In this document: in pieces, positions 1,285 to 50,400 of the stretch | Numbering within the stretch: position 1 is the first letter of the stretch | Layout of the letters: the number at the start of each line of letters is the position of its first letter | Source: a virus | Lineage: Duplodnaviria > Heunggongvirae > Uroviricota > Caudoviricetes | Length of the DNA: 54,176 bases | Strand: one strand, 5' to 3' | Virus record (IMG/VR): IMGVR_UViG_2563366830_000017 | Span: 1 to 54,176 of that record | Notes under the pieces: model-generated | The model's input: the letters and a program-made list of their open reading frames with translations, nothing else | What the model was told of the DNA's origin: nothing | Databases searched by the model: none | Made by a program: the position numbers and the translations under genes

Positions 1285-1330
1285 AGGTTGCTCCGGGCTA
1301 TGAAATAGAAAAATGAATCCGTTGAAGCCT

Positions 1331-1345
1331 GCTTTTTTATACTAA
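1331..1345. other. attL: Lambda-type attachment core GCTTTTTTATACTAA (attL junction)
   Basis: Exact 15-bp lambda att core read in sequence, between ybhC and int. Confidence 0.85.
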
Positions 1346-1418
1346 GTTGGCATTATAAAAAAGCATTGCTTATCAATTTGTTGCAACGAACAGGTCACTA
1401 TCAGTCAAAATAAAATCA

Positions 1419-9448: not shown

Positions 9449-10138
9449 TTAACCATGCTTCCTGTACGTCTGCGGCATGCTTCCAATGACCTTACCGAAT
9501 ATGAACACCCGGTTCATCTCGTCTTTCTCGATCGGGTCCCACGGCGAGTAGCTCTTGTTATCAGAGATAACCAGCAGCTTATCCTTCATCATTTGAAGAC
9601 GTTTTACATGGGCAGTGTCGTCGTACAGAAACGCATAGATGCCATCACCGTCGAAAGATTTAACAGTGATATCAACGAACAGCAGGTCACCTGGTTCGAT
9701 CGTCCCTGACATGCTGTCACCTCGCACGTTAATGATGCGGATATTTTCCGCCTTCCTGCCATCGAACATGTGACGAGCATCGTCAAACGAGTACTCAACC
9801 GAGCGTAGAACTTCTACAAACTCACGGTTGATTACACCTGGCCCGGCACTGACTTCTATATCAAGAACGTCAATTTTGAAGTATTTGGAATGGCTGACAG
9901 TTGATTGTATTGGTTGCACTGTACTGTCTGACATATTTCCAACGCCAGAAGATAACCATTCTGCGCGCACACCCAAAGCGTTCGCGATCTCCACGATTTT
10001 AGTTGTTTGGTTAGCTTTCCCTGTTTCGATTTTCTGAATAGCAGCTTGGCTAACCCCGACCAAATCCCCAAGCGCCTTTTGTGTAAGGCCTCGCGCTAAT
10101 CTGGCTTCTTTAAGTCTTTCTGAGAGTGTTGTTTTCAT
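9449..10138 (-). CDS. cI: CI-type repressor (HTH-XRE N-domain plus LexA/S24 peptidase-like C-domain)
   Basis: 229-aa ORF; N-terminal LTQKALGDLVGVSQAAIQKIETGK HTH; C-terminal S24-like region; divergent from cro; not lambda immunity. Confidence 0.85.
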   Translation of the reverse strand: MKTTLSERLKEARLARGLTQKALGDLVGVSQAAIQKIETGKANQTTKIVEIANALGVRAEWLSSGVGNMSDSTVQPIQSTVSHSKYFKIDVLDIEVSAGPGVINREFVEVLRSVEYSFDDARHMFDGRKAENIRIINVRGDSMSGTIEPGDLLFVDITVKSFDGDGIYAFLYDDTAHVKRLQMMKDKLLVISDNKSYSPWDPIEKDEMNRVFIFGKVIGSMPQTYRKHG

Positions 10139-20421: not shown

Positions 20422-20590
20422 GAGGTTGCCCCGTATTCAGTGTCGCTGATTTGTATTGTCTGAAGTTGTTTTTACGTTAAGTTGATGCAGATCAATTAAT
20501 ACGATACCTGCGTCATAATTGATTATTTGACGTGGTTTGATGGCGTAGATGCACGTTGTGACATGTAGATGATAATTATTATCATTTTGC

Positions 20591-20800
20591 GGGTCCTTTC
20601 CGGCGATCCGACAGGTTACGGGGCGGCGACCTCGCGGGTTTTCGCTATTTATGAAAATTTTCCGGCTTAAGGCGTTTCCGTTCTTCTTCGCCGTAACTTC
20701 ATGTTTTTATTTAAAACACCCCCTAAAAAGAAAGGAAACGACAGGTGCTGAAAACGGGCTTTTTGGCCTCTGTCGTTTCCTTTCTCTGTTTTTGGCCGTG
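20591..20800 (+). other. cos: Prophage cos site (cosQ-cosN-cosB); cohesive-end sequence GGGCGGCGACCT at 20621..20632
   Basis: Sequence matches lambda cos as recalled; immediately upstream of Nu1. Confidence 0.9.
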
Positions 20801-20809
20801 GAATGAACA

Positions 20810-21329
20810 ATGGAAGTCAACAAAAAGCAGCTGGCTGACATTTTCGGTGCGAGTATCCGTACCATTCAGAACTGGCAGGAACAGGGAATGCCCGTTCTGC
20901 GAGGCGGTGGCAAGGGTAATGAGGTGCTTTATGACTCTGCCGCCGTTATAAAATGGTATGCCGAAAGGGATGCTGAAATTGAGAACGAAAAGCTGCGCCG
21001 GGAGGTTGAAGAACTGCGGCAGGCCCGCGAGGCAGATCTCCAGCCAGGGACTATTGAGTACGAACGCCATCGACTTACGCGTGCGCAGGCCGACGCACAG
21101 GAACTGAAGAATGCCAGAGACTCCGCTGAAGTGGTGGAAACCGCATTCTGTACTTTCGTGCTGTCGCGGATCGCAGGTGAAATTGCCAGTATTCTCGACG
21201 GGATCCCCCTGTCGGTGCAGCGGCGTTTTCCGGAACTGGAAAACCGACATGTTGATTTCCTGAAACGGGATATCATCAAAGCCATGAACAAAGCAGCCGC
21301 GCTGGATGAACTGATACCGGGGTTGCTGA

Positions 21330-21355
<26 letters not shown>
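20810..21355 (+). CDS. nu1: Terminase small subunit Nu1
   Basis: 181 aa MEVNKKQLADIFGASIRTIQNWQEQGMPVLRGGGKGNEVLYD... matches lambda Nu1. Confidence 0.97.
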
Positions 21356-25036
<3,681 letters not shown>

Positions 25037-26753: not shown

Positions 26754-27029
26754 ATGTCGATGTACACAACCGCCCAGCTGCTGGCGGCAAATGAGCAGAA
26801 ATTTAAGTTTGATCCGCTGTTTCTGCGTCTCTTTTTCCGTGAGAGCTATCCCTTCACTACGGAGAAAGTCTATCTCTCACAAATTCCTGGACTGGTAAAC
26901 ATGGCGCTGTACGTTTCGCCGATTGTTTCCGGTGAGGTTATCCGTTCCCGTGGCGGCTCCACCTCTGAATTTACGCCGGGATATGTCAAACCCAAGCACT
27001 TAGCATGGCTTTCTGAGGCTTTCGTGTAG
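26754..27029 (+). pseudogene. E: Major capsid protein E, 5-prime fragment (82 lambda-like codons then 10 foreign codons and stop) created by insertion
   Basis: MSMYTTAQLLAANEQKFKFDPLFLRLFFRESYPFTT...GYVKPKH matches lambda E; then LAWLSEAFV-stop. Confidence 0.9.
26989..26998. repeat. Left copy of 10-bp direct repeat AACCCAAGCA at island junction
   Basis: Identical 10-mer at 38323..38332; lambda-like E sequence ends here. Confidence 0.75.
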
Positions 27030-27110
27030 TTGCTGGTTTTTACACTTAATCTTTTGATAATAAAGAATAAGTTTATCTGGCGCTTTCACTGAATTTTCCT
27101 CGTTATCTGT

Positions 27111-27146
27111 GTGTTGCAATCATCTCTGTATTGCAGCTTGTATTGC
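27111..27146 (+). repeat. Candidate integrase arm-type sites: three copies of TGT(A/G)TTGC(A) near left end
   Basis: GTGTTGCA, TGTATTGCA, TGTATTGC read in sequence; two more TGTATTGCA copies at 38227..38247. Confidence 0.45.
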
Positions 27147-27161
27147 TTTTTGGGGCTAAAA

Positions 27162-28397
27162 ATGGCTGGCGAGAACAAACTGAGCGACAAAGCGCTTAAA
27201 GGATATCTGGGGAAACCCAGAGAAAAGCAGATCACCATTGCTGATGGAAAGGGGCTTTCTATTCGTGTGAGTACTAAAGGGGCTGTGAGCTTTGTTTTCT
27301 TCTACAGGTTAGCAGGTGGCCGGGCTGCTCCGGTCTGGCTAACGTTGGGTAAATATCCTGATATGTCACTCAAACAGGCAAGGGAAAAGCGCGACGAGTG
27401 CCGTGGTTGGTTGGCTGACAAACGTGATCCGCGTATCCAGATTAAGATTCAGGCTGAAGAACGCTTAAAGCCGGTCACAGTGGAGGATGCACTAAATTAC
27501 TGGTATGAAAACTACTGTAAGGTGCGTCGTAAAACTCATGCTGTAACGCTTGGCAGATTTCGAAAGCATATCTTTCCCTATATCGGTCATTTGCCCGTAA
27601 ATGACACTCACCTATATGAATGGCTGGACTGTTTTGACCGAATTAAACGTAATGCACCAGTTATGGCGGCGTATGTTTTTTCTGACACTAAATTAGCTCT
27701 TCGTTTTTGTCGGGTACGCCAGTACGCGACGTGTGATGCTTTAAAGGATTTGCGCATGAGTGATGTGGGGCAGATTGCAGGTAAGCGGGATCGGGTTCTG
27801 GATGAAGCCGAACTCGGCCAGCTCTGGAAGGCAATTTTTGTCGAGCCTGATTTAAAACTAATGTCTGAATACACGCGAAAAATGTTTGTGCTTTGTACAG
27901 TATTTGGATGTCGAATGAGTGAAGCCCGATTATCAGAATGGAGCGAATGGGATCTCGAAAGTTGGGTTTGGACTGTGCCAAAAGATCACTCAAAAACTGG
28001 TGTTGAAATCGTCAGACCAGTACCTGAAATTCTACGACAGTGGGTAACGGATGTTCACGAAGAGACAAAACATACTGGTTATGTGCTGGGAAGTCTGCGA
28101 ATTAGAGAAAGCGTAAGCAAGATTGGGGGGAAAATCGGTAAACGTTTGGGCCATGAAAAACAATGGTCACTACACGACCTTAGAAGAACGCTATCTACTC
28201 ATCTAAGTGATCTCGGTGTTGAATTTTATGTAGTAGAACAACTGTTAGGCCATGCGCTACCTGGCGTGGCAGGTGTTTACAACCGGAGTAAGTTTATGGC
28301 TAAAAAACTGGATGCTCTGGAACTCTGGACTACATATCTCAATAGCATCGCAGCTGCTGATTCAAAAGTGACAATCCTCAAACAAAAGGCTGGTTAG
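27162..28397 (+). CDS. Tyrosine integrase, P4-type (island-encoded)
   Basis: 411 aa from ATG; C-terminal HxLRxT...HxxxxxxxxY-like catalytic region (HELR...HDLRRT...LGHA...VY); adjacent to left junction. Confidence 0.85.
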   Translation: MAGENKLSDKALKGYLGKPREKQITIADGKGLSIRVSTKGAVSFVFFYRLAGGRAAPVWLTLGKYPDMSLKQAREKRDECRGWLADKRDPRIQIKIQAEERLKPVTVEDALNYWYENYCKVRRKTHAVTLGRFRKHIFPYIGHLPVNDTHLYEWLDCFDRIKRNAPVMAAYVFSDTKLALRFCRVRQYATCDALKDLRMSDVGQIAGKRDRVLDEAELGQLWKAIFVEPDLKLMSEYTRKMFVLCTVFGCRMSEARLSEWSEWDLESWVWTVPKDHSKTGVEIVRPVPEILRQWVTDVHEETKHTGYVLGSLRIRESVSKIGGKIGKRLGHEKQWSLHDLRRTLSTHLSDLGVEFYVVEQLLGHALPGVAGVYNRSKFMAKKLDALELWTTYLNSIAAADSKVTILKQKAG

Positions 28398-28398
28398 C

Positions 28399-28629
28399 AT
28401 GAAAAAAATGGCAATTGTTGATAAAAAGGGTCTGGAGTACATTCCTAACATTGACCGAATGATCCGTGAGAAAGAATGTCGGGAGCTAACTACTCTTGCG
28501 AACAGCACACGCTGGAAGCTGGAGAAGGAAGGAAAATTTCCTAAGCGGATCAAGATTGGTTCCACTGCTGTTGCATATCGTCTTTCAGAAGTGCAGGCAT
28601 GGATTCGAGGTGAGTGGGAAACAACTTAA
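28399..28629 (+). CDS. AlpA-family HTH regulator/excisionase-like protein
   Basis: 76 aa; placed immediately after integrase as in P4-like and PICI elements. Confidence 0.7.
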   Translation: MKKMAIVDKKGLEYIPNIDRMIREKECRELTTLANSTRWKLEKEGKFPKRIKIGSTAVAYRLSEVQAWIRGEWETT

Positions 28630-28636
28630 CTATTAG

Positions 28637-29467
28637 GTGGGCATTGTGGCTATATTTCATTATACAGATCTTTTTGGTTTGAAAGGTATATTAGACTCTA
28701 ATTCTTTATGGGCTACAAACATATATTTCTTAAATGATAAAGAGGAGTCTAACCATGGATGTGAATGCTTTCGAAATACAATTAAAATAGTTGATGACAA
28801 TATCATTCCAAAAGATAAGAAAACTATTTTGCTCAAGTCTCTTGACATGTATGAGAAAGGGAGGTTACAAAAAGAAAAAGGGATTGATAAACATGTTTAT
28901 AGCATCTCTTTTTGTAAGGAAAACGATAAGTTAAGTCAGTGGAGAGGTTACGGAAATAAACAGGGTGTTTGCATTGAGTTTGATGCGGATGAACTTGTGA
29001 GCTTTTCTCAAAATATTTATTTAAATTGTGTTGCACATGATGTTATATATTCAAATAATAACGATATTACTAAGATGAGTAAGGAGTTGGGAGAGTTTTT
29101 TTCTTGTAATGGTATTAACATTAAAGAAATGAATGATCATTTTGTAACAATGGTCTCTACGTATCAATTTATATCTAAATACATCCCATTTTTTAAACAT
29201 CCTAGTTTTATCGAAGAGAATGAATTTAGATTGGTATTTACTCCGTGGATGCAAATGCCAGATGTGCACTTCAGAATAAATAATAATGGAATCATCCCTT
29301 ATATCATCATTGATAATAAAGATAATAGAAAGTTACCAATTAAAAGCATTACAATTGGCCCGACAAACGATTATGATTTCATTGAGGCTGGTATAAAAAT
29401 GTTCTTGGATTCAAGAGGATTTAGTTCTGTGGAAATTAAATCCTCATCAATTCCATTCAGGGGGTAA
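28637..29467 (+). CDS. DUF2971-like protein (AT-rich cargo gene)
   Basis: N-terminal FHYTDLFGLKGILDSNSLWATNIYFLNDKEE resembles the DUF2971 signature as I recall it; GTG start; low GC. Confidence 0.55.
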   Translation: MGIVAIFHYTDLFGLKGILDSNSLWATNIYFLNDKEESNHGCECFRNTIKIVDDNIIPKDKKTILLKSLDMYEKGRLQKEKGIDKHVYSISFCKENDKLSQWRGYGNKQGVCIEFDADELVSFSQNIYLNCVAHDVIYSNNNDITKMSKELGEFFSCNGINIKEMNDHFVTMVSTYQFISKYIPFFKHPSFIEENEFRLVFTPWMQMPDVHFRINNNGIIPYIIIDNKDNRKLPIKSITIGPTNDYDFIEAGIKMFLDSRGFSSVEIKSSSIPFRG

Positions 29468-29598
29468 GGATTAACACTTTTAATCTGTGATATTATAAAA
29501 ATGGTGGATAAAGGCGACCAGAATTGGTCGCCAATGTGAGTATATAGTTAGCCTTAATCAGAATACGAGGTTATCGCCTGATAGGCAATGTGAACAGT

Positions 29599-29955
29599 TC
29601 AATATTTAGGTGGTTCAACAAGAGCGTTTATCATTGCTCTCAAATTATCGCGAACACTTATCCAAGTCTGTTCTGCTCGTTCTAACTCATCAGTGTACAA
29701 CTTTAATGTTTTATCTATGCCATATGTGGCTATTAAATTTATAGCTTCTTGTAATTTTTCAGGATTATTCCTTCTTGGGGGAGTGAATATACCACGGATT
29801 TTTCCGGTAATTAAAGCTTTACGGTGTCTACATAGAATACCTTTACTTCCTGCTGGACAATTACAAGTCATGATTAGCGAGCCAGAATCGTTTGATACAG
29901 TGACTATGTATACATCCAAACTACTGCTACTTGTTGCGAAGAATTCGTATTTCAT
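29599..29955 (-). CDS. SWIM-type zinc-finger protein (CxCx8CxH), AT-rich cargo gene
   Basis: Motif CNCPAGSKGILCRH seen in translation; convergent with DUF2971-like gene. Confidence 0.5.
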   Translation of the reverse strand: MKYEFFATSSSSLDVYIVTVSNDSGSLIMTCNCPAGSKGILCRHRKALITGKIRGIFTPPRRNNPEKLQEAINLIATYGIDKTLKLYTDELERAEQTWISVRDNLRAMINALVEPPKY

Positions 29956-29982
29956 GTGTTAGCTCCTTGACTTCAATTATTC

Positions 29983-30114
29983 TTATCCTTTTGGTTCAAT
30001 ACCGCGCCGTAGCAGCTCTTTGCGCCCTAATTCTTTAAGCCAGTTGGCTAGGCTTATGCCGTCGCTCTGCGCTTCTTTGTCGAATTGCTCTTTTAGCTCT
30101 GGAGAAATTCGCAT
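29983..30114 (-). CDS. Small basic protein, possible ribbon-helix-helix repressor (43 aa from ATG)
   Basis: MRISPELKEQFDKEAQSDGISLANWLKELGRKELLRRGIEPKG; divergent from downstream plus-strand operon. Confidence 0.4.
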   Translation of the reverse strand: MRISPELKEQFDKEAQSDGISLANWLKELGRKELLRRGIEPKG

Positions 30115-30313
30115 TCTGAATTGTGGAGATTGCCCATCACCCTTAGGACTTTTATCGCGTTTGATCGTTGACAAGTGACCACCTATTGAATTAGCCTTTT
30201 CATTGTTAGGTGGCCACCTTAACACGGGGGCACTTAAAAAAGCAAAGCCCGAAGGTGCTGGGAACACCAACGGGCTTCTAACCACCAACGATAGCAACAG
30301 TATCGAGGTAGCT

Positions 30314-30517
30314 ATGAGAAATCATACCACACACCCGCAAGGGCGGGACCCGCACAACCTGAATAAATACATCTGGCGTTTTATCGCCTTGAGTACGGCA
30401 CAACCGCGCATGATTACCATCGAGGCCATCAGCGAACAGGAAGCCCGCCAGCAATCCCCAACTGGCTGCGTGATGGTATTCGCCGCCCGTATTCGTCAGG
30501 AGGTGTGCCGTGCTTAA
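30314..30517 (+). CDS. Hypothetical small protein, first gene of island early operon
   Basis: ORF track 30203..30517; ATG at 30314 chosen. Confidence 0.4.
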   Translation: MRNHTTHPQGRDPHNLNKYIWRFIALSTAQPRMITIEAISEQEARQQSPTGCVMVFAARIRQEVCRA

Positions 30518-30695
30518 AACCTTCCGTGTATTTGCCCGAGCTGTTAACCCACTGGGCCACACAATTGGTATCACTCAGAACGTGAAGGCTGTTAATGTTC
30601 AGACGGCTATTGCTGCGGTGAGAAGCGAATCATCAGAATATGGCTTATCACAAGTCATTATTTCAGCAGTGTATGAATTAAAAGAGGTGCATTAA
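30510..30695 (+). CDS. Hypothetical small protein
   Basis: 61-aa ORF, overlapping starts/stops in operon. Confidence 0.45.
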   Translation: MLKTFRVFARAVNPLGHTIGITQNVKAVNVQTAIAAVRSESSEYGLSQVIISAVYELKEVH

Positions 30696-30886
30696 TGCAG
30701 GAAATCACATTACACGAAGCCGCTGAACGTGCGCACCAGACAGAAATTATTTGCCGCCTTCTTGAGGTATACCCGAACAAAATTACAGATGCTGATATAT
30801 CCGCGCTGGCGAGCCTACTGGCGCGCCTTTCGGGAAGTGTCGCTAGTTTCCTGATTGAGGAAGAAAGTAAGCTGGTGGGGGATTAA
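30695..30886 (+). CDS. Hypothetical small protein
   Basis: 63-aa ORF, translationally coupled in operon. Confidence 0.45.
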   Translation: MQEITLHEAAERAHQTEIICRLLEVYPNKITDADISALASLLARLSGSVASFLIEEESKLVGD

Positions 30887-31108
30887 ATGAATACAGAACG
30901 GGAAGTCTTTTTTAAATTGTTAGCATGTGCAGAAAGTCCATTAACTTTAAATAATTCAGCAAAAGCAATATTAAATATGTGGCTTGATTGCATAAATGAC
31001 AATGAAGATGCAAATATTGCTTATGGCCTGTTGTCACTTATTGATGAATCAGCAGAAAAACTCAATGACGCAATAAATAGTGCCCTGCTATCAAATAAGT
31101 CGAGTTAA
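30887..31108 (+). CDS. Hypothetical small protein
   Basis: 73-aa ORF in operon. Confidence 0.45.
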   Translation: MNTEREVFFKLLACAESPLTLNNSAKAILNMWLDCINDNEDANIAYGLLSLIDESAEKLNDAINSALLSNKSS

Positions 31109-31125
31109 GTCGAGGAATAAATAAT

Positions 31126-31425
31126 ATGGAAATGAAAAATTCTGGCTTTATTGCCAGCGGCCCCGCTCGGCCTGAATTTATGAACGGCGATATTTACCGC
31201 GATAAATACGGCGGCACGGTAACGATTAAAGGCGTGGCAGAACGGCGCATCACTTACCGCCGTGAGGGGTATAGCTATGACTGCGTGATGCCTGTTTATC
31301 AGTTCCGGCGTGATTTTTCCCTGGTATATGCCGCACCCCGCAGTAAGCCCATCAGCAGGGAAAAAGCGCGGGGAAACATCCAGAAAATGAAAAGCATGAT
31401 TAACGCATTCAGGGGCAAAAAATGA
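31126..31425 (+). CDS. Hypothetical protein (99 aa)
   Basis: ORF immediately upstream of and overlapping primase start. Confidence 0.5.
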   Translation: MEMKNSGFIASGPARPEFMNGDIYRDKYGGTVTIKGVAERRITYRREGYSYDCVMPVYQFRRDFSLVYAAPRSKPISREKARGNIQKMKSMINAFRGKK

Positions 31426-33173
31426 AACTGGCACCGAACTTAAAAAAACAGCCACGCGACAGACTGACAGAGGTAATCATCTTTGCAGGTAGTGATGCGT
31501 GGAGCCATGCGAAAGAGTGGCGGGAATGGGCGGGTAAACATATTGCCGCCGACGATGTGCCGCCTGTCGTGCTGGCTGATGAGCAACTGAAAAATATCAC
31601 CGATTACCGGATCATTGATGAAGATCGTCAGTGTGTGCGTGTTTACCGCGCAGGACATATCACAGAGCACAGCATGACGCAGATTGTTACGTTACTGGCT
31701 GTGGCTGGAGTGAAGACCGTACACGAATACGCGGGGATTACTGACACCAGCCCAGTGGATTTATCCGAGCAGTTGCCGCGACTCAAAGAGGAATGCGAGC
31801 GTGGGGAAAGTCTGGTGCTTAATCTTCCGACGAAGCAAAAGGCGCAACTTTCACAGATGGCAGACAGTGAACGTGCACAACTACTTGCCGATCGCTTTGA
31901 TGGTGTGTGTGTTCATGCAGAAAGTGAAATCGTCCACGTATGGCGCGGCGGGGTATGGTGTCCGGTCAGCACAATGGAGCTGAGCCGCGAAATGGTGGCG
32001 ATCTATTCAGAGCACAGGGCCACGTTCAGCAAACGTGTAATCAATAACGCCGTGGAAGCGTTAAAAGTTATTGCCGACCCCATGGGGGAGCCGTCCGGTG
32101 ATTTGCTACCGTTCACTAATGGTGTGCTTAACCTGAAAACGGGGGAATTTTCTCCGCACTCGCCGGAGCACTGGAGCACCACGCACAATGGCATTGAGTA
32201 CACGCCACCAGTAGCAGGGGAAAACATCCGCGATAATGCGCCAAATTTCCATAAATGGCTTGAACATGCCGCAAGAAAAGACCCGCGCAAGATGATGCGT
32301 ATATGTGCCGCGTTATACATGATTATGGCGAACCGCTACGACTGGCAGATGTTCATTGAGGCCACCGGAGACGGGGGAAGCGGTAAGAGTACATTTACCC
32401 ATATTGCCACCCTGCTTGCTGGCAAACAGAACACCGTAAGCGCGGAGATGACATCACTCGATGATGCAGGAGGGCGCGCGCAGGTTGTCGGGAGTCGTCT
32501 TATCGTCCTTGCCGATCAGCCGAAATATACGGGGGAAGGCACGGGCATCAAGAAAATCACGGGAGGCGATCCCGTTGAAATTAACCCGAAATATGAGAAG
32601 CGATTCACGACGATAATAAGGGCGGTGGTACTGGCAACCAATAACGACCCGATGATCTTTACCGAACGGGCCGGAGGTGTGTCACGCCGTCGGGTGATTT
32701 TCCGGTTCGACAACATTGTAAGGGAGGACGAAAAAGACAAGGAATTACCGGAAAAGATAGCGGCAGAAATCCCCGTAATTATCCGCCGCTTGCTGGCTAA
32801 TTTTGCTGACCCTGAAAAGGCACGGGCTTTATTACTGGAACAGCGTGACGGTGATGAAGCTCTGGCAATAAAGCAGCAAACGGATCCGGTTGTTGAGCTT
32901 TGCGCGGCGCTGGAGTTTCTGGAGGAAGCTCGTGGGCTAATGATGGGCGGTGGTGGTGACACCGTGAAGTACACGACCAGAAACAGCCTTTACCGTGTCT
33001 ATATGGCCTTCATGGCATACACAGGAAAGGGGAAATGTTTGAGCGTGAATGAGTTCGGAAAGGCTATGAGGTCAGCGGCGAAAGTTTACGGATATGAATA
33101 TATTACGCGAAAAGTTAAGGGAGTCACGCAGACCAACGCAACGACTACTGATGATTGCGATGCGTTTTTATAA
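31422..33173 (+). CDS. Primase/replication protein (P4-alpha C-terminal-like, with Walker A GDGGSGKST)
   Basis: 583 aa; P-loop GDGGSGKS seen; followed by iteron array. Confidence 0.8.
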   Translation: MKLAPNLKKQPRDRLTEVIIFAGSDAWSHAKEWREWAGKHIAADDVPPVVLADEQLKNITDYRIIDEDRQCVRVYRAGHITEHSMTQIVTLLAVAGVKTVHEYAGITDTSPVDLSEQLPRLKEECERGESLVLNLPTKQKAQLSQMADSERAQLLADRFDGVCVHAESEIVHVWRGGVWCPVSTMELSREMVAIYSEHRATFSKRVINNAVEALKVIADPMGEPSGDLLPFTNGVLNLKTGEFSPHSPEHWSTTHNGIEYTPPVAGENIRDNAPNFHKWLEHAARKDPRKMMRICAALYMIMANRYDWQMFIEATGDGGSGKSTFTHIATLLAGKQNTVSAEMTSLDDAGGRAQVVGSRLIVLADQPKYTGEGTGIKKITGGDPVEINPKYEKRFTTIIRAVVLATNNDPMIFTERAGGVSRRRVIFRFDNIVREDEKDKELPEKIAAEIPVIIRRLLANFADPEKARALLLEQRDGDEALAIKQQTDPVVELCAALEFLEEARGLMMGGGGDTVKYTTRNSLYRVYMAFMAYTGKGKCLSVNEFGKAMRSAAKVYGYEYITRKVKGVTQTNATTTDDCDAFL

Positions 33174-33179
33174 AAAATG

Positions 33180-33430
33180 GCAATGGTTATCTACCTTGTC
33201 TACCTGACTGAAAGAAAATACTTTTATTTCAATGTATTAATGCAGGTAGATAACTATTTTTCACTGTCTACCTGTTATCTACCTTATCTACCCATTTTTG
33301 TAGACAGGTAAGGAGACGGGTAGAGATGAGGTAGACAGCTATTTGGGGCTGTCTACCTCCCTGAAACCCGCGCCATTACTGGCCTGATAACTAATCAGGT
33401 AGACAAGGTAGACAAGGTGGTGGTGCACAA
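33180..33430. repeat. ori: Island replication-origin iterons (GGTAGACA / TGTCTACC family, both orientations)
   Basis: At least 10 copies of (A)GGTAGAC(A) or its complement within 250 bp directly after primase gene. Confidence 0.75.
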
Positions 33431-33462
33431 AAAACTTTTTAAACGAGGGGGTAAAAATAAAA

Positions 33463-33720
33463 ATGCACACATCAGGAAAACTGAACAAACATATAAAGCC
33501 ACATTACCGCGCCCTTGATATGGCTGAACACTGGCTAAGGGTGGCGATTAAGGCAATAGACCGCAACGCCGGGGAAGGATACGCGAAAGCACATCCCGAA
33601 CTGATAAGCGCATTCATGACAACGGCGGCTGCAAACTTTGCCACGCTGACCGAACGGGAGATTGCTGAAGCGGAGGAAGTGACAACAATCAATATTAAGT
33701 CCGGAGAGCAGGCAGCATGA
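33463..33720 (+). CDS. Hypothetical protein (85 aa)
   Basis: ORF overlapping ssb start. Confidence 0.45.
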   Translation: MHTSGKLNKHIKPHYRALDMAEHWLRVAIKAIDRNAGEGYAKAHPELISAFMTTAAANFATLTEREIAEAEEVTTINIKSGEQAA

Positions 33721-34166
33721 CGGCGCAAATATCAGTTTACGGGCGGTTGGTGGACGACCCGCAGACAAAACAGACCAGCAAGGGCACCCCCATGACGCTG
33801 GCGCGTATGGCGGTATCACTGCCCTGCAGTCAGTCGGATGACGGTCTGGCGACGTTGTGGTTATCTGTCCTGGCGTTTGGCAGACAAGCCGACGCGCTGG
33901 CAAAGCATCACAAAGGCGAACTCCTGAGCGTGGCGGGTAACATGCAGATGAGCCAGTGGACTGGACAGAACGGCGAAACGCGGCAGGGCTGGCAGGTTAT
34001 CGCAGACAGCGTAATCAGTGCGCGATCGGTGCGACCGGGCGGCAAAAAAGGCCAACAGGGGCAGGCTACTGACGCACTGAACAGAGCAAAACAACAGGCA
34101 GATCAGCAAGGAAGCCAGCCACCAGAGGGAGATAATGAGCAATGGGGAGATGATATCCCGTTTTAA
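33717..34166 (+). CDS. ssb: Single-stranded DNA-binding protein
   Basis: OB-fold-like N-region, Gln/Gly-rich linker and acidic C-terminal tail ending DDIPF. Confidence 0.85.
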   Translation: MTAQISVYGRLVDDPQTKQTSKGTPMTLARMAVSLPCSQSDDGLATLWLSVLAFGRQADALAKHHKGELLSVAGNMQMSQWTGQNGETRQGWQVIADSVISARSVRPGGKKGQQGQATDALNRAKQQADQQGSQPPEGDNEQWGDDIPF

Positions 34167-34382
34167 ATATTGCCAATAAAAAAAGCCGGAAAAAATAAAT
34201 TTTCCGGCATGCTACATAAATCCCGACCAAAGGGAGTGAAGATATTAACACTAATTGTCCGCACTGAAGTTGTCACCCCAAAACTTTATACAACATTGCA
34301 CTCGGTTGCATGTGTTCGCATGACAAATATCGGTGATAGCATATATCCACAATTATTTTTAATGAATGCAAAGAGGATGCGT

Positions 34383-35423
34383 ATGGTTGATTTATATTCG
34401 CCTACTCAGCTTGTACAGGTAGTTAATGCTGTAGATGTACAAAAACAACTAAATGCGTTATTTACCAGTTTGTTTTTTACTCGCTCGGTAATGTTTGAAT
34501 CGCGCGATATTATTCTTGATACAATCGACGATCCAAATATCCCAATTGCAGCGTTTTGTTCTCCTATGGTGGGTAGTAAAGTTTCACGTGACGAAGGGTA
34601 CGAATCAAAAACAATTCGTCCAGGCTATATGAAGCCGAAAAGCAGCATTGATCCAAATAAGTTAGCTGTGCGCCCTGCTGGTGTGTCACCTGAGCAATAC
34701 AATGCTTTTGGGGCGCGTAATATTAAAGTTAAACAGGCGATTGTAAATCAGGCTAAAGCTATTCGTGCACGTATTGAATGGCTTGCTGTTCAGGCAATCA
34801 CAACGGGGAAAAATATCATTGAGGGCGATGGTATTGAACGTTATGAGCTGGACTGGAATATAAAACCACAAAATATCATCACTCAGTCTGGCGGTACTGA
34901 GTGGTCAGGTAAGGATAAAGAAACTTTTGATCCAAATGATGATATTGAGAGCTACGCAGAATTTAGTGAGGGCGTCACTAATATCATCATTATGGGTGGT
35001 AATGTATGGAAGAAATACCGTTCATTCAGAGCGATAAAAGAGGCTTTGGATACCCGTCGTGGTTCTAATTCCGAACTGGAAACGGCCCTTAAAGACCTTG
35101 GTGATTCGGTGAGTTTTAAAGGGTATATGGGCGATGTTGCGATTGTTGTTTACAGCGGGCGTTATACCGACGAGGACGGAACAGAAAAACATTTCCTTGA
35201 TCCTGATTTGATGGTGCTTGGCAATACGGCTCTTCAGGGGATTGTCGCCTATGGCGGTATTCAGGATCCGGAGCTAATCCGAATGGGGCTGACTAAAGCC
35301 GAACTTGCACCGAAAAACTATATTGTGCCTGGTGATCCGGCTATTGAATATGTGCAGACACATTCAGCACCACAGCCAATACCGGCCCGCATCAATCGTT
35401 TTGTTACCGTTCGCATTGGCTAA
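34383..35423 (+). CDS. Island-encoded major capsid protein, diverged homolog of lambda E
   Basis: Blocks shared with prophage E: NIITQSGGTEWSGKDKETFDPNDDIESYA, LDTRRGSNSELETALKDLG, YMGDVAIVVYSGRY, MVLGNT; ORF track 34170 start is upstream. Confidence 0.85.
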   Translation: MVDLYSPTQLVQVVNAVDVQKQLNALFTSLFFTRSVMFESRDIILDTIDDPNIPIAAFCSPMVGSKVSRDEGYESKTIRPGYMKPKSSIDPNKLAVRPAGVSPEQYNAFGARNIKVKQAIVNQAKAIRARIEWLAVQAITTGKNIIEGDGIERYELDWNIKPQNIITQSGGTEWSGKDKETFDPNDDIESYAEFSEGVTNIIIMGGNVWKKYRSFRAIKEALDTRRGSNSELETALKDLGDSVSFKGYMGDVAIVVYSGRYTDEDGTEKHFLDPDLMVLGNTALQGIVAYGGIQDPELIRMGLTKAELAPKNYIVPGDPAIEYVQTHSAPQPIPARINRFVTVRIG

Positions 35424-35432
35424 GGGGGAGCA

Positions 35433-35774
35433 ATGGCTACTCATTACACTGAACTCATGGCTGGCACTGAAGCACTGGTGACTACGCTGGGGATATTTTC
35501 AGCTAATAAAGGGGTAATTCCTGCATTTACGCCACTGATGCAGGAAGATGCAACAGGTGCACTGGTGGTATGGGATGGTTCGAGCGTAGGTAAAGCGGTT
35601 TATGTTTCCGCTGTACAAATCGACACCGCGAAAAAAACACAGGCTCAGGTCTATAAGACAGGTGTCTTAAATGTTGATGCTCTGAACTGGCCTGAGTCTG
35701 TTAAAGAACTGTCAGTAAAGATTGCAGCGTTTGTTGGCTCAGGTATTTCTGTTCAGCCGCTGGCTCGTGTGTAA
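35433..35774 (+). CDS. Island-encoded decoration protein, diverged homolog of lambda D
   Basis: THYTEL, FTPLMQEDATGALVVWDGSSVGKAV, YKTGVLNVDALNWPE, AAFVGSGISV align with prophage D motifs. Confidence 0.8.
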   Translation: MATHYTELMAGTEALVTTLGIFSANKGVIPAFTPLMQEDATGALVVWDGSSVGKAVYVSAVQIDTAKKTQAQVYKTGVLNVDALNWPESVKELSVKIAAFVGSGISVQPLARV

Positions 35775-35785
35775 AGGGGGATACA

Positions 35786-36169
35786 ATGCAGAATGATTAC
35801 AATGACCTTAAGCCAATTGCCGAAATGATGTACCCGAATCCAGCTGTAGAGGAATTAAAAGCTATCGCTGACAAAATGTGTTTAAGCGAGCGCCTTGTTG
35901 ATATGAATCAGGTGATGGAAATTACAACCCTGAGTCGTCGTACACTGCTAAACCTTGAGGCTAGTGGAGAGTTCCCGGAGCGTGTGCAGGTTACGGAAGG
36001 GCGTAAGGCCTGGTATTTAAGTGAAGTGATCGACTGGATAAATAATATTCCTCGCGCTTCTGAATATTGCCGCGTACCTGTCCCAAAAAAGCCAGATGCG
36101 GCGCTATGCCTCAAGATTGAGCGTGTACGCCGCAATGCACGGGATGGTCGCTATAAGCTGATTGGTTGA
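35786..36169 (+). CDS. HTH protein (AlpA/MerR-like C-terminal half) immediately upstream of island cos
   Basis: 127 aa; segment MNQVMEITTLSRRTLLNLEASGEFPERVQVTEGRKAWYLSEVIDWI looks like AlpA-type HTH. Confidence 0.55.
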   Translation: MQNDYNDLKPIAEMMYPNPAVEELKAIADKMCLSERLVDMNQVMEITTLSRRTLLNLEASGEFPERVQVTEGRKAWYLSEVIDWINNIPRASEYCRVPVPKKPDAALCLKIERVRRNARDGRYKLIG

Positions 36170-36194
36170 TGAAATTAGGGCCCGCTCTGGCTGG

Positions 36195-36400
36195 CGGGTC
36201 CTTTCCGGTGATCCAGAACGTTACGGGGCGTCAGGCGCGCAGATTCTTGCTATTTATGACAATTTTCTGCGATTTGCCGTTTCCGTTCTTCTTCCTTGTA
36301 ACTTATTGTTTTTACTAGAAATACCCTCTAAAAAGAAAGGAAATGACAGGTGCTGAAAACAGGCTTTTGGGTCTCCGTCATTTCCTTTCTCATTTTTATC
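36195..36400 (+). other. cos: Island cos-like site, same orientation as prophage cos
   Basis: GGGTCCTTTCCGGTGATCC...ACGTTACGGGGCG...CGCG...GCTATTTATGA...AAAAAGAAAGGAAATGACAGGTGCTGAAAAC aligns block-by-block with 20591..20800. Confidence 0.8.
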
Positions 36401-36652
36401 TAAAAGTAAGCATCGAGGCCACCCCAAATGCTTATAGAGGTTATTGTGTCACTATGCGTACTGTTCAGGATTTAAAGTAGCAAGACATCTAGTTGCTTGC
36501 AGTTTTGGCGAATGATGTGAGGTTCTCTATAACAGATAATGTAACAAGTTACTGATATATTCTGTTATGGTTGACTTTAAATTTTGTTGCTCCTTCAATG
36601 AATTATTGAGGGGTAAAAATTAGGCGTGATAAGAATCGATCACGCCTATTGT

Positions 36653-37969
36653 TTATCTTGAAGAAATTTTAGGCAGGCTTTTTAAAAATAAATCTTTATT
36701 TCTACTTGCATCAGTTAAAAGTGTTAGGAATATTTTATCTGTAGGAGTGCATGTGCTCTTGTTTAACAGTAATTCACCAAGTTTCTGTAATCGAGAGAAT
36801 TGCCCATCCTCTTGGATTCTGTGACGAAGTGTACTATCATTTTTAATAACATCAACAAATGCAGAAACCATATTAATATCAAAGTGTTCAAACATTTCCA
36901 ATATTAAAGGTGCAGCCCCATTTGAATAAAAATTCTTCCTTCCATACTGATAGCTGAAACCACGATGGCCAACATAAGTTTTTGTAATGGCTGAAACAAA
37001 TTCAACAATATTATCTTCAGGGACGAAACTCGAGAATGGTAATAATTGGGTTACGATTTTTTCCTCTTCTGACCAATTATCTAAAGACTCGGTGAGTTTA
37101 TTAATGAGAGGCTCAATAATAACTTTTCGGGATGCAGGGCTAATATACATCAGTCCATCTACCAATAGTATGAATTGTTGTGCCTTCTCTATCTTATTGT
37201 TGTTTCCTGAAACTAAATACTTGTCAAATTGTTGGCCGACTTTACGTCGGTCGTCTTTTGAAAGTAATGTCCATAAAATAGGTGCGCAAAATTCAATGTT
37301 GTTTCTGAGTTCACTTGATATATTGGATGAGCAGTATGTGCCAAAAAAACGAGAGGATAATTCACTGATATAAATTGCAGGTAGATCTGAAAAGGCTTGC
37401 TTAACTGCCAGACTATTTTTATTAAATGTTGCCGAATCCATTTCTGAAAGATATGTAGTTATATCTATGATGGCTGGTGGAAACTCTTTAGAAAGAACGT
37501 ATTTATTACAATCATTAATCAGGTTCACTACTTTGATTAAATCAGGGTCGCTACTTTGTGGATGTCCACCAAATAGATTCCTGGTTTCTCTAGCTTGTTG
37601 TAATAGTTTCTGACCTTCTCGATCGATAACTCCTATTTTAAATGCTCCATCTATTAAATCAAAGTCGCTCACATAATCCTGAAAATCTTCATACGTTTTA
37701 ATTTCTTTTTTTTGTTTACACTCTTTGTTGAATAGATCTAGGCTACGATGAATTATCTTTTGACGTAAATCATCAACTACAGCATTCCAGTAAGCAGTGA
37801 TGGCACTTCTATAACCTTTTACAGGAAGAACTCTTATTGCTTCTGAAATATATGGGCAGTCAACTACATCATGCCTCACAGTTGAGAGCGCAGTTTGTAA
37901 CAATGTAACTTCTGTAGAGTCTAGTGGAGTTGGCTGCACTAAATGAGAACTTATCTCTGTACCCTTCAT
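36653..37969 (-). CDS. Hypothetical 438-aa protein, AT-rich cargo gene between island cos and right junction
   Basis: Low GC; contains R-x5-H motif (RNLFGGH); no family confidently assigned. Confidence 0.6.
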   Translation of the reverse strand: MKGTEISSHLVQPTPLDSTEVTLLQTALSTVRHDVVDCPYISEAIRVLPVKGYRSAITAYWNAVVDDLRQKIIHRSLDLFNKECKQKKEIKTYEDFQDYVSDFDLIDGAFKIGVIDREGQKLLQQARETRNLFGGHPQSSDPDLIKVVNLINDCNKYVLSKEFPPAIIDITTYLSEMDSATFNKNSLAVKQAFSDLPAIYISELSSRFFGTYCSSNISSELRNNIEFCAPILWTLLSKDDRRKVGQQFDKYLVSGNNNKIEKAQQFILLVDGLMYISPASRKVIIEPLINKLTESLDNWSEEEKIVTQLLPFSSFVPEDNIVEFVSAITKTYVGHRGFSYQYGRKNFYSNGAAPLILEMFEHFDINMVSAFVDVIKNDSTLRHRIQEDGQFSRLQKLGELLLNKSTCTPTDKIFLTLLTDASRNKDLFLKSLPKISSR

Positions 37970-38322
37970 TTCAGGATTTTCCTATTCTTTTCCATTTTTC
38001 TACTCTATTGAATTTGAAAAAGATATCAAGTTCGTTCTTGCCAGTTTTAAGTGGAAAATTTGATGTTACCTTATTGAGATAAGGCAGTTCTCTATAACCT
38101 ATTGTTATTAATTATTTTTATTTTTTTCCAATTCAGATGTTTAGGGCTAAGAAGTTAAGTGAGAGTTCACAGCAAAACTGCTTCTAGTTCCTCACCGAGG
38201 AGCAAAAGGTTAAGACAGCGTACTTTGTATTGCACAATGTATTGCAGAACCTTCTTTCGAAAGCTACAACAATCAATTTTATATTGAAAATTCAATCATA
38301 TCCTTTCGATATTGACTCATAT

Positions 38323-38332
38323 AACCCAAGCA
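38323..38332. repeat. Right copy of 10-bp direct repeat AACCCAAGCA at island junction
   Basis: Identical to 26989..26998; lambda-like E sequence resumes here. Confidence 0.75.
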
Positions 38333-39113
38333 TGAAGTGAATCCGCAGATGACCCTGCGTCGCCTGCCGGATGAAGATCCGCAGAATCTGGCGGACCCGG
38401 CTTACCGTCGCCGTCGCATCATCATGCAGAACATGCGTGACGAAGAGCTGGCCATTGCCCAGGTGGAAGAGATGCAGGCAGTTTCTGCCGTGCTTAAGGG
38501 CAAATACACCATGACCGGTGAAGCCTTCGATCCGGTTGAGGTGGATATGGGCCGCAGTGCGGCCAACAACATCACGCAGTCCGGCGGCACGGTGTGGAGC
38601 AAGCGTGACAAGTCCACGTATGACCCGACCGACGATATCGAAGTCTACGCGCTGAACGCCAGCGGCGTGGTGAATATCATCGTGTTTGATCCGAAAGGCT
38701 GGGCGCTGTTCCGTTCCTTCAAGGCCGTCAGGGAGAAGCTGGATACCCGTCGCGGCTCTCATTCCGAGCTGGAGACAGCGGTAAAAGACCTGGGCAAAGC
38801 GGTGTCTTATAAGGGAATGTATGGCGATGTGGCCATCGTCGTGTATTCCGGACAGTACGTGGAAAACGGCGTCAAAAAGAACTTCCTGCCGGACAACACG
38901 ATGGTGCTGGGTAACACTCATGCACGCGGTCTGCGCACCTATGGCTGCATTCAGGATGCGGATGCATTGAGTGAGGGTATTAATGCGTCTCCCCGTTATC
39001 CGAAAAACTGGAAGACATCCGGCGATCCGGCGCGTGAGTTCACCATGATTCAGTCAGCACCGCTGATGCTGCTGGCTGACCCTGATGAGTTCGTTTCCGT
39101 ACAACTGGCGTAA
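38323..39113 (+). pseudogene. E: Major capsid protein E, 3-prime fragment (codons ~80-341)
   Basis: PKHEVNPQMTLRRLPDEDPQNLADPAYRRRRIIMQNM...EFVSVQLA matches lambda E C-terminal 260 aa. Confidence 0.9.
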
Positions 39114-47416: not shown

Positions 47417-50400
47417 ATGGGTAAAGGCAGCAGTAAGGGGCATACCCCGCGCGAAGCGAAGGACAACCTGAAATCCACGCAGCTGCTGAGTGTGATTGAT
47501 GCCATCAGCGAAGGGCCGATTGAAGGTCCGGTGGATGGATTAAAAAGCGTGCTGCTGAACAGTACGCCGGTGCTGGACAGTGAGGGGAATACCAATATAT
47601 CCGGCGTCACGGTGGTGTTCCGGGCAGGTGAGCAGGAGCAGTCACCGCCGGAGGGATTTGAATCCTCCGGCTCCGAGACGGTGCTGGGTACGGAAGTGAA
47701 ATATGACACGCCGATCACCCGCACCATTACGTCGGCAAACATCGACCGTCTGCGCTTTACCTTCGGTGTACAGGCACTGGTGGAAACCACCTCAAAGGGT
47801 GACAGGAATCCGTCGGAAGTCCGTCTGCTGGTTCAGATACAGCGTAATGGTGGCTGGGTGACGGAAAAAGACATCACCATTAAGGGCAAAACCACCTCGC
47901 AGTATCTGGCCTCGGTGGTGGTGGGTAACCTGCCGCCGCGCCCGTTCAATATACGGATGCGCAGGATGACGCCGGACAGCACCACAGACCAGCTGCAGAA
48001 CAAAACGCTCTGGTCGTCATACACCGAAATCATCGATGTGAAACAGTGCTACCCGAACACGGCACTGGTCGGCGTGCAGGTGGATTCGGAGCAGTTCGGC
48101 AGCCAGCAGGTGAGCCGTAATTATCATCTGCGCGGGCGCATTCTGCAGGTGCCGTCGAACTATAACCCGCAGACGCGGCAATACAGCGGTATCTGGGACG
48201 GAACGTTTAAACCGGCATACAGCAACAACATGGCCTGGTGTCTGTGGGATATGCTGACCCATCCGCGCTACGGCATGGGGAAACGTCTTGGTGCAGCGGA
48301 TGTGGATAAATGGGCGCTGTATGTCATCGGCCAGTACTGCGACCAGTCAGTGCCGGACGGCTTTGGCGGCACGGAGCCGCGCATCACCTGTAATGCGTAC
48401 CTGACCACACAGCGCAAGGCGTGGGATGTGCTCAGTGATTTTTGCTCGGCGATGCGCTGTATGCCGGTATGGAACGGGCAGACGCTGACGTTCGTGCAGG
48501 ACCGACCGTCAGATAAGGTGTGGACCTACAACCGCAGTAATGTGGTGATGCCGGATGATGGCGCGCCGTTCCGCTACAGCTTCAGCGCCCTGAAGGACCG
48601 CCATAATGCCGTTGAGGTGAACTGGATTGACCCGAACAACGGCTGGGAGACGGCGACAGAGCTTGTGGAGGACACGCAGGCCATTGCCCGTTACGGTCGT
48701 AACGTCACGAAGATGGATGCTTTTGGCTGTACCAGCCGGGGGCAGGCACACCGCGCCGGGCTGTGGCTGATTAAAACAGAACTGCTGGAAACGCAGACCG
48801 TGGACTTCAGCGTGGGTGCCGAAGGGCTTCGCCATGTACCGGGCGATGTCATTGAAATCTGCGATGATGACTATGCCGGTATCAGCACCGGCGGGCGCGT
48901 GCTGGCGGTAAACAGCCAGACCCGGACGCTGACGCTCGACCGTGAAATCACGCTGCCATCTTCCGGCACCACGCTGATAAGCCTGGTTGACGGGCAGGGG
49001 AGTCCGGTCAGCGTGGAGGTTCAGTCCGTCACCGACGGCGTGAAGGTAAAAGTGAGCCGTGTTCCTGACGGTGTTGCTGAATACAGCGTATGGGGGCTGA
49101 AGCTGCCGACGCTGCGCCAGCGACTGTTCCGCTGCGTGAGTATCCGTGAGAACGACGACGGCACGTATGCCATCACCGCCGTGCAGCATGTGCCGGAAAA
49201 AGAGGCCATCGTGGATAACGGGGCGCACTTTGACGGCGAACAGAGTGGCACGGTGAATGGTGTCACGCCGCCAGCGGTGCAGCACCTGACCGCAGAAGTC
49301 ACTGCAGACAGCGGGGAATATCAGGTGCTGGCGCGATGGGACACACCGAAGGTGGTGAAGGGCGTGAGCTTCCTGCTTCGCCTGACCGTGGCAGCGGATG
49401 ACGGCAGTGAGCGGCTGGTCAGCACGGCCCGGACGACGGAAACCACATACCGCTTCACGCAACTGGCGCTGGGAAACTACAGGCTGACAGTCCGGGCGGC
49501 AAATGCCTGGGGGCAGCAGGGCGATCCGGCATCGGTATCGTTCCGTATTGCCGCACCGGCAGCGCCGTCGCGGATTGAGCTGACGCCGGGCTATTTTCAG
49601 ATAACCGCCACGCCCCATCTTGCCGTTTATGATCCGACGGTACAGTTTGAGTTCTGGTTCTCGGAAAAGCGGATTGCGGATATCAGGCAGGTTGAAACCA
49701 CAGCCCGCTATCTTGGCACGGCGCTGTACTGGATAGCTGCCAGTATCAATATCAAACCGGGCCATGATTATTATTTTTACATCCGCAGTGTGAACACCGT
49801 TGGCAAATCGGCATTTGTGGAGGCTGTTGGCCAGCCGAGTGATGATGCATCCGGCTATCTGGATTTTTTCAAAGGCGAGATAGGGAAAAGCCATCTGGCT
49901 CAGGAGCTGTGGACGCAGATTGATAACGGTCAGCTTGCGCCTGACCTGGCTGAAATCAGGACGTCCATTACGGATGTCAGCAATGAAATCACGCAGACCG
50001 TCAATAAGAAACTGGAAGACCAGAGTGCGGCAATTCAGCAGATACAGAAGGTTCAGGTTGATACAAATAATAACCTGAACAGCATGTGGGCTGTGAAGCT
50101 GCAGCAGATGCAGGACGGACGCCTTTATATCGCGGGTATTGGTGCCGGTATTGAGAACACCCCTGACGGCATGCAGAGTCAGGTGCTGCTGGCGGCGGAC
50201 AGGATTGCGATGGTTAATCCTGCGAATGGCAACACAAAGCCGATGTTTGTTGGTCAGGGCGATCAGATATTTATGAATGAAGTGTTCCTGAAATATCTGA
50301 CGGCTCCCACCATTACCAGCGGCGGTAATCCTCCGGCATTTTCCCTGACACCGGACGGGCGGCTGACGGCGAAAAATGCCGATATCAGCGGTAACGTGAA

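Follow-up and report, generated by a model that had tools for sequence, protein, structure and literature searches.

An 11capE-type helper-embedded PICI carries a lambda-type cos site that is probably read by the terminase of its resident prophage

A phage satellite within gene E of a lambda-like prophage

The window, by which we mean the whole stretch of 54,176 nucleotides that was analysed, holds a lambda-like prophage with portal, protease and D genes and with tail genes from 39 kb onwards. This prophage, referred to below as the helper, carries a lambda-type integrase (1419-2489; Arm-DNA-bind_1) and adjoins a pectinesterase-like (ybhC-like) gene (window 1-2489). Its site therefore appears to be the classical attachment region of lambda, unlike that of the published 61icd composite, which is at icd. 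Its cos site (20589..20793, plus strand) is near-identical to the ends of lambda (NC_001416), with cosQ at 20591-20597, the overhang GGGCGGCGACCT at 20621-20632, R3 at 20673-20688, R2 at 20728-20740 and R1 at 20774-20785. Downstream on the same strand are nu1 (20810..21355), whose small terminase product is 99% identical to lambda Nu1 and has PDB hits to 6hn7_B and 1j9i, and gene A (21330..23255), in which the 641-aa ORF of the large terminase gpA is intact. The major capsid gene E is split. The N-terminal fragment (26754..26998, plus strand) corresponds to lambda E nt 1-245 and is 98% identical to it in blastn (Pfam Phage_cap_E), and the C-terminal part (38323..39113, plus strand) corresponds to lambda E nt 238-1026 and includes the attR core, with lambda-E nt 238 resuming at window position 38325.

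The element that interrupts gene E at lambda-E nt 238-245 is an island of 11,334 bp, counting one core copy (26999..38332, plus strand). It is bounded by a 10-bp identity block, the att core AACCCAAGCA, at 26989-26998 (attL) and 38323-38332 (attR). Its GC content is below that of the flanking late genes and its main genes all lie on the late-operon strand. A tyrosine integrase gene (27111..28397, plus strand; Pfam Arm-DNA-bind_3 and Phage_integrase; PGAP-equivalent start at about 27162) is directly followed by alpA, a predicted excision and regulatory gene (28399..28629, plus strand; Pfam Phage_AlpA, 3e-15). Further downstream are a primase/replicase gene (31422..33173, plus strand; D5_N, DUF5906) and, 3′ of it, iteron-like direct repeats of families D1 and D15 (33186..33358), a putative origin of replication. 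The repeat units are GTTATCTACCTTrTCTACC, present twice, and a 30-nt unit AGGTAGAyAnCTATTT...CTGTCTACCT, also present twice. The origin of PICIs has been described as lying just downstream of the primase gene (PMC6092414).

The late zone of the island encodes an E-like major capsid protein of 346 aa that is 42% identical to lambda E (34383..35423, plus strand) and a D-like head decoration protein that is 38% identical to helper D (35433..35774, plus strand). The open frame of the capsid homologue reaches back to a TTG at 34170 (417 aa), while the PGAP start in equivalent genomes corresponds to 34383. These two homologues are the only virion-type genes of the island. They are followed by a gene for a 127-aa winged-HTH protein of the AlpA family (35786..36169, plus strand; Pfam Phage_AlpA), which stops 25 bp 5′ of the cos site described below and whose product is identical in other island variants (WP_001178671.1 in L001, L004 and L006). 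The island also encodes DUF2971, SWIM and DUF4222 proteins and an SSB. In its variable zone, the DUF2971 protein (28637-29467) and the opposite-strand SWIM zinc-finger protein (29599-29955) gave weak candidate-defence hits in PADLOC (PDC-S31 at 1e-4 and PDC-S62 at 5e-5).

Between cos and attR lies a cargo gene on the minus strand (36653..37969) with a low GC content (about 35-39%), for whose 438-aa product no family match was found in Pfam or PADLOC. In relatives the same slot is occupied by a gene for a TIR-domain protein (L179, 17469-18611), a DUF2971 protein (L006, 11274-12032) or a 311-aa hypothetical protein (L178, 17797-18732). The slot looks like a variable hotspot for accessory or defence genes.

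Compared with the gram-negative PICIs (Fillol-Salom 2018), the island has co-directional int and alpA genes at one end and a primase/replicase gene with iteron-like repeats, the putative origin, immediately 3′ of it. Its size falls within the 10-20 kb of PICIs and it has no lysis, tail or large-terminase genes. Its gene list is the full gram-negative PICI set with terminase genes absent. A scan of the window with Rfam for C4/isrK-type satellite RNAs gave no family at all at gathering thresholds. The island with its junctions was found at ≥ 80% in 29 complete E. coli genomes, and it is 99.7% identical to the best of these copies, which occupy the same site in other genomes.

The island is a PICI of the helper-embedded class (HE-PICI), of the 11capE type described by Tommasini, Mageeney and Williams in 2023. 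The founding HE-PICI is Eco567.11capE, which E. coli NRG857c carries within its prophage 50icd, and 201 elements were reported at the capE site (PMC10111431). In that work a cos-like segment common to satellite and helper was noted and packaging by the helper was presumed, excision and replication were shown for 11capE/50icd, and virions of the helper were not detectable by the authors. Our island resembles Eco567.11capE in its size of about 11 kb, in its position in and co-orientation with a lambdoid gene E, in the 10-bp identity block, in int-alpA, primase, its own capsid homologue and the lack of terS, and in a helper-shared cos-like segment at the usual cos position of PICIs. The shared segment measures 258 bp at 90% in the Eco567.11capE pair and 207 bp at 81.6% in the island and helper studied here. 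The two also differ in that our helper is not at icd and in the cargo gene after cos, which varies among copies. Both the element type and its cos-like segment were thus already published in 2023, and the finding of the cos site is a re-discovery. What is added here is modest: a dissection of the cos elements, the absence of a detectable Rpp and a polymorphism of the cohesive ends. Neither a cosQ/cosN/cosB dissection nor a variant cohesive end was found in the passages of PMC10111431 that were searched.

Anatomy of the island cos site

An earlier note on this DNA had claimed that a segment of about 200 bp in the island aligns block by block with the prophage cos. We searched window positions 36150-36450 against the whole window with blastn, and the single non-self match was the helper cos. 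Island positions 36194-36397 matched 20589-20793 on the plus strand at 81.6% over 207 columns (E 6.6e-44), and the runner-up matches (E > 0.03) represented the internal inverted repeat of R2 and R1. In a three-way MAFFT alignment with the authentic lambda cos, the match between island and helper was co-linear and far from random, and the block-by-block correspondence was thereby borne out. The individual sequences quoted in support of it were also recovered: GGGTCCTTTCCGG at 36196-36208 and 20591-20603, the nicking-region pair ACGTTACGGGGCG and AGGTTACGGGGCGGCGACCTCGCG, and AAAAAGAAAGGAAA(T/C)GACAGGTGCTGAAAAC in both cos regions.

The island cos (36194..36397, plus strand) is the only one of the island and consists of cosQ, cosN and cosB, as delimited by blastn and the three-way alignment. 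The cosQ heptamer GGGTCCT (36196..36202, plus strand; lambda counterpart 48473-48479 in NC_001416) is identical to that of the helper, lies 30 bp 5′ of the overhang start as in lambda, and is unchanged in every aligned island and phage variant. The 22-bp cosN (36221..36242, plus strand) reads TTACG|GGGCGTCAGGCG|CGCAG when aligned with the helper and lambda. Its left half-site TTACG (36221-36225, plus strand) is the same as in the helper and lambda, whereas the right half differs. The predicted 12-nt 5′ overhang (36226-36237, plus strand) is GGGCGTCAGGCG instead of the GGGCGGCGACCT of the helper and lambda, with 7 of 12 positions identical. A difference in detail between the two nicking regions had been claimed as well, and it amounts to five positions of the overhang (6, 8, 9, 10 and 12). 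In lambda, cosN has five rotationally symmetric pairs. The island retains the three that flank both nick positions (-2/14, -1/13 and 2/11). It has lost the pairs 3/10 and 6/7 and has acquired 4/9 and -4/16.

In cosB, R3 (CGTTTCCGTTCTTCTT; 36278..36293, plus strand) starts 52 bp from the overhang start and is identical in island, helper and lambda. The A/T-rich spacer between R3 and R2 (36294..36332, plus strand) is I1-like and about 72% identical to that of the helper (23 of 32 positions over lambda positions 69-100). From its position we infer that it is the counterpart of the IHF-site region of lambda and may bind IHF. The inverted R2 (AAGAAAGGAAATG; 36333..36345, plus strand) and R1 (CATTTCCTTTCT; 36379..36390, plus strand) each carry a single change compared to the helper, C to T and G to A, respectively. 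These are equivalent substitutions on opposite strands (GGAAACG to GGAAATG in R2, 36339-36345; CGTTTCC to CATTTCC in R1, 36379-36385), and in most relatives the R2 substitution is present alone, so that the covariation of R2 and R1 is not consistent. All spacings are the same in island and helper (cosQ to cosN 30, cosN to R3 52, R3 to R2 55 and R2 to R1 46 bp). The similarity ends just past R1, where the helper runs on into nu1. The island cos shares with lambda the cosQ, left cosN half-site, R3, spacings and orientation, with R2 and R1 one change away, and is unlike lambda in its overhang, in the I2 and I1 spacers (about 72-75% identical) and in the lack of nu1 after R1.

The two cos sites lie on the same strand with their overhang starts 15,605 bp apart, in agreement with the 15.6 kb given in the earlier note. 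That note had called this arrangement the hallmark of a cos-type satellite packaged by the helper terminase. The reading as a satellite that the helper would package finds support in the sequence and in what has been published on this family. The co-orientation as a general hallmark did not stand: because the island is inserted in gene E of the helper, the sites are co-oriented and just 15.6 kb apart, and this is a consequence of embedding in the late operon of the helper.

Cohesive-end alleles and mosaic cos modules

We scanned IMG/VR with a cos pattern that left overhang positions 6, 8, 9, 10 and 12 free. Among the 120 matches listed, 107 had GGGCGGCGACCT, nine GGGCGGCGTCCG and two GGGCGTCAGGCG, and two were singletons. 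A complete IMG/VR scan for GGGCGNNAGGCG gave 51 contigs. The island overhang GGGCGTCAGGCG occurred in 26 IMG/VR contigs; in 25 of these the island HTH gene lay upstream of it, and the remaining one had a phage context. GGGCGGAAGGCG occurred in 25, about 21 of them directly upstream of Nu1 and gpA and three in islands. The variant GGGCGTCAGGCG is thus nearly confined to islands; it was present in one of about 125 phage-context cos sites sampled, among the matches listed. As a strict statement, a satellite-only cosN was rejected, as one prophage carries the same allele and about 21 carry the sister allele GGGCGGAAGGCG. No phage record matched the island cos as a whole above about 82%, and the three variant overhang strings had no occurrences in the searchable literature.

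The prophages with variant alleles include L148, which is lambdoid and complete, having lysis genes, cos, nu1, A and an intact E, and which carries GGGCGGAAGGCG at 9800-9811. The prophage with the island allele is L039, which is 97.5% identical to the helper of the window from cos to E (L039:1234-11337). Its E gene is intact, leaving the att site of the island empty, its overhang is GGGCGTCAGGCG (1264-1275), and its Nu1 and gpA are 98-99% identical to those of lambda. L039 is possibly the product of a cos exchange between island and helper. Prophages with variant alleles could themselves be defective.

The gpA encoded beside GGGCGGAAGGCG prophage sites is about 99% identical to lambda gpA. Among 58 full-length (641-aa) gpA sequences beside typed cos sites, no residue tracked the overhang allele. 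Only S/T151 differed in majority between the allele groups, with both residues present in both groups, and a change of gpA specificity following the overhang allele was therefore rejected. Since one lambda-type terminase evidently serves several overhangs, these sequence comparisons make it plausible that the resident helper could nick the cosN of the island. The lambda-like cohesive end itself is polymorphic, with at least four alleles (GGGCGGCGACCT, GGGCGGAAGGCG, GGGCGGCGTCCG and GGGCGTCAGGCG). The neighbouring gpA is about 99% identical to that of lambda beside GGGCGGCGACCT, GGGCGGAAGGCG and GGGCGTCAGGCG and about 89% identical in the GGGCGGCGTCCG group. The loci on which the polymorphism was observed are L148, L039, the IMG/VR loci L030-L044 and L132, and the two overhangs of the window.

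Relatives from E. coli genomes and IMG/VR revealed a mosaic cos module. In the type represented by L010, L012 and L018, the R2-R1 spacer is unrelated yet equally long, and all three R elements are still present. Such retention of R elements beside a diverged spacer points to selection on the Nu1 sites, as far as can be judged from the alignments; conservation among the island copies stems partly from recent common descent. L006, L014 and L024 combine the variant overhang with a phage-type cosB and a chimeric TerS. In L015 and L020, the variant overhang lies between phage-type immediate flanks that are followed by an EcCICFT073-like cosB. Because the variant overhang occurs with such differing flanks and cosB types, its five substitutions behave as a discrete allele. 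The 25 island contigs all have the same overhang, although they represent at least four different cosB or downstream contexts. The chimeric TerS is encoded right after cos in some capE islands (L006:10616-11167; also in L014, L023, L024 and L180) and is absent from the island of the window. Its first ~100 aa, the DNA-binding domain, are nearly identical to lambda Nu1, and its divergent C-terminal half is similar to a TerS-like protein encoded by L005, a chromosomal PICI.

Packaging by the helper terminase and alternative readings

For the related chromosomal PICI EcCICFT073, cos function has been demonstrated (PMC6092414). This element combines a phage-like cosQ and cosN with a private cosB, which is bound by a heterodimer of RppA (c1503) and the helper TerS (PMC6739421, PMC6092414). 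We searched for an Rpp in our island by phmmer against a copy of the PDB in which RppC (6hlk) is present. The queries were the 127-aa HTH protein, the concatenated functionally unassigned plus-strand ORFs (≥ 50 aa) and the two minus-strand ORFs beside cos. No match to RppC was found in this search, whose sensitivity is limited to sequence similarity with RppC. The island ORFs likewise gave no match to the Nu1 DNA-binding domain in the PDB, where an AlpA structure alone was matched. The 127-aa HTH protein was rejected as an Rpp, as it belongs to the AlpA family, has AlpA 8c3t as best PDB hit and did not hit RppC. The island thus departs from the EcCICFT073 type in having the phage R3, R2 and R1 with identical spacing and no detected rpp gene. 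Since its cosB is of the helper type and no Rpp-like ORF was found, the simplest mechanism would be direct recognition by Nu1 and cleavage by gpA.

Like EcCICFT073, the island has the late-zone order capsid, decoration, HTH and cos, a lambda-family cos, a predicted dependence on helper TerS and TerL and, probably, packaging as phage-length multimers. The combination of cos parts is the reverse of that in EcCICFT073, with a phage cosB, a private overhang and no detectable Rpp. Moreover, EcCICFT073 has two cos sites and is chromosomal, while the island has a single cos and is embedded in its helper. A second parallel is provided by the cos SaPIs of the SaPIbov5 type (PMC6092414), which are Gram-positive PICIs and also satellites with the cos of their helper that rely wholly on the helper terminase and have a capsid-protein homologue of their own. 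In contrast to the island, SaPIbov5 is chromosomal, and its sequences and hosts are unrelated. It forms small capsids via Ccm, whereas no sign of size redirection was seen for the island.

We consider it likely that the segment is the packaging site of this 11capE-type HE-PICI and is read directly by the terminase of the resident lambda-like prophage. The island cos is real, probably functional and of a known kind. A packaging role is supported by the gene content, as the island lacks terS, terL and a detectable Rpp and the helper has an intact Nu1 and gpA ORF. Upon induction, the composite of helper and satellite would excise and replicate, after which the island would excise via Int and AlpA and thereby restore gene E, as was shown for 11capE/50icd (PMC10111431) and is presumed for this copy. 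Its own primase and origin would then produce island concatemers with a cos every 11.3 kb. Judged by sequence, helper Nu1 would bind R3, R2 and R1 without the need for an Rpp-type adaptor, and gpA would nick the conserved CG|GG and CG|CG half-sites to leave 12-nt ends GGGCGTCAGGCG. Packaging would proceed rightward and end at a cosQ-bearing cos once the head is full. In a new host, the ends would anneal with their own kind only and Int would target the gene E of a resident lambdoid prophage.

Relative to the lambda chromosome, one island unit amounts to 23%, three units to 70% and four units (45.3 kb) to 93% of the length. According to work attributed to Cue and Feiss in 1997, termination of lambda packaging reportedly depends on head filling. 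The DNA in EcCICFT073 particles is phage-sized (PMC6092414). On these grounds the expected product would be a full-size head filled with a concatemer of four units, unless the E and D paralogues of the island redirect capsid size. Public contigs contained embedded copies: the attP-junction 32-mer had no hits in IMG/VR and the JGI metagenomes (exact match, by which a variant attP is missed), and these two collections yielded no excised or particle-derived, cos-ended island copies. The island-sized IMG/VR contigs were embedded copies with E flanks, as were the five metagenome contigs with an island-type cosN, and every IMG/VR or metagenome contig that had an island-type cosN and matched the window outside the cos module was embedded.

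Two other readings of the segment are both improbable in our view. The cos might be a relic without function, left behind when the island recombined with a helper phage or captured its late genes, with an altered cosN that cannot be nicked, so that the island is not packaged via cos. The overhangs of island and helper disagree at five of 12 bases, relatives show an obvious mosaicism of the cos region, IMG/VR and the JGI metagenomes yielded no excised or packaged forms, and helper DNA is known to be taken up by the late zones of PICIs (PMC10111431). However, divergence of the spacers has left cosQ, the R elements and every spacing intact, the overhang has stayed identical across its different contexts, intact prophages with the same gpA make use of related alleles, and the island has no other packaging signal. 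Alternatively, the site could be functional and matched to another helper, namely a lambdoid phage that has a GGGCGTCAGGCG end like L039, in which case the resident prophage would not be the helper. L039 is lambda-like, with an intact E and exactly this end, and the overhang of the resident helper differs from that of the island in all four composites examined. Against this reading stand the rarity of the allele in phage contexts, the match of the island cosB to the Nu1 sites of the resident helper, and the close identity of Nu1 and gpA of L039 to those of lambda, which together with the lack of a correlating gpA residue leaves no distinct enzyme specificity evident.

Still less probable is a terminase decoy, in which a good cosB would bind Nu1 and gpA and be poorly cut, lowering packaging of the helper more than it serves transfer of the island. 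The pairing of a strong cosB with a divergent cosN fits such a role, and satellites typically interfere with helper packaging (PMC6739421), but the island would then lack any means of entering particles, cosQ is conserved although a termination signal is useless to a decoy, and the variant alleles appear functional in prophages. We give hardly any credence to redirection of the Rpp type, where an island protein would heterodimerise with the helper TerS and retarget it to a private island cosB. This mechanism is known from EcCICFT073, the closest experimental model (PMC6739421), and the gene immediately upstream of cos codes for a conserved winged-HTH protein. Yet the cosB of the island consists of the R3, R2 and R1 of the helper and is not private, no island ORF matched RppC (6HLK) or the Nu1 DNA-binding domain in the PDB, and the HTH protein is of the AlpA family, while among the cloned genes of the EcCICFT073 region only c1503 (RppA) blocked lambda (PMC6739421). 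Direct reading by the resident terminase therefore remains the preferred explanation. With such a cos, a terminase-less element could leave the cell, and the site supports the reading of this locus as a satellite nested in its helper's capsid gene.

In the four composites, the island always carried GGGCGTCAGGCG, and the helper carried GGGCGGCGACCT in the window, L178 and L179 and GGGCGGAAGGCG in L177. As these copies are closely related, the mismatch could stem from descent and is not necessarily adaptive. A more speculative idea, which we regard as unlikely, is that capE satellites keep a private end that is deliberately mismatched to the resident helper and still cut by its terminase, which would block annealing between the two. 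If so, the mismatch would prevent viable hybrid chromosomes and keep the DNA pools of satellite and helper separate. An example of such a hybrid is the stretch from island cos to helper cos of an unexcised composite, which at about 45.4 kb (calculated with the published 61-kb composite size) would be packageable. Irrespective of its role, a polymorphic 12-nt end beside a near-unchanged gpA bears on what the lambda terminase reads at cosN.

The packaging module varies within one PICI family. A helper-type cosB without adaptor is present in the window and a chimeric TerS in L006, while in other forms a private cosB is accompanied by Rpp, as in EcCICFT073, or by a divergent TerS-like protein, as in L005. 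L005 is a chromosomal EcCICFT073-like PICI near yejO with the lambda overhang and an unrelated cosB. Its TerS-like protein (L005:2722-3264) is full-length and 40% identical to Nu1. This protein had no match in the PDB, RppC included, and was rejected as an Rpp, since it resembles a TerS of full length whose DNA-binding domain has diverged. L005 seems to represent a third type of packaging module beside the Rpp-dependent and the adaptor-free islands.
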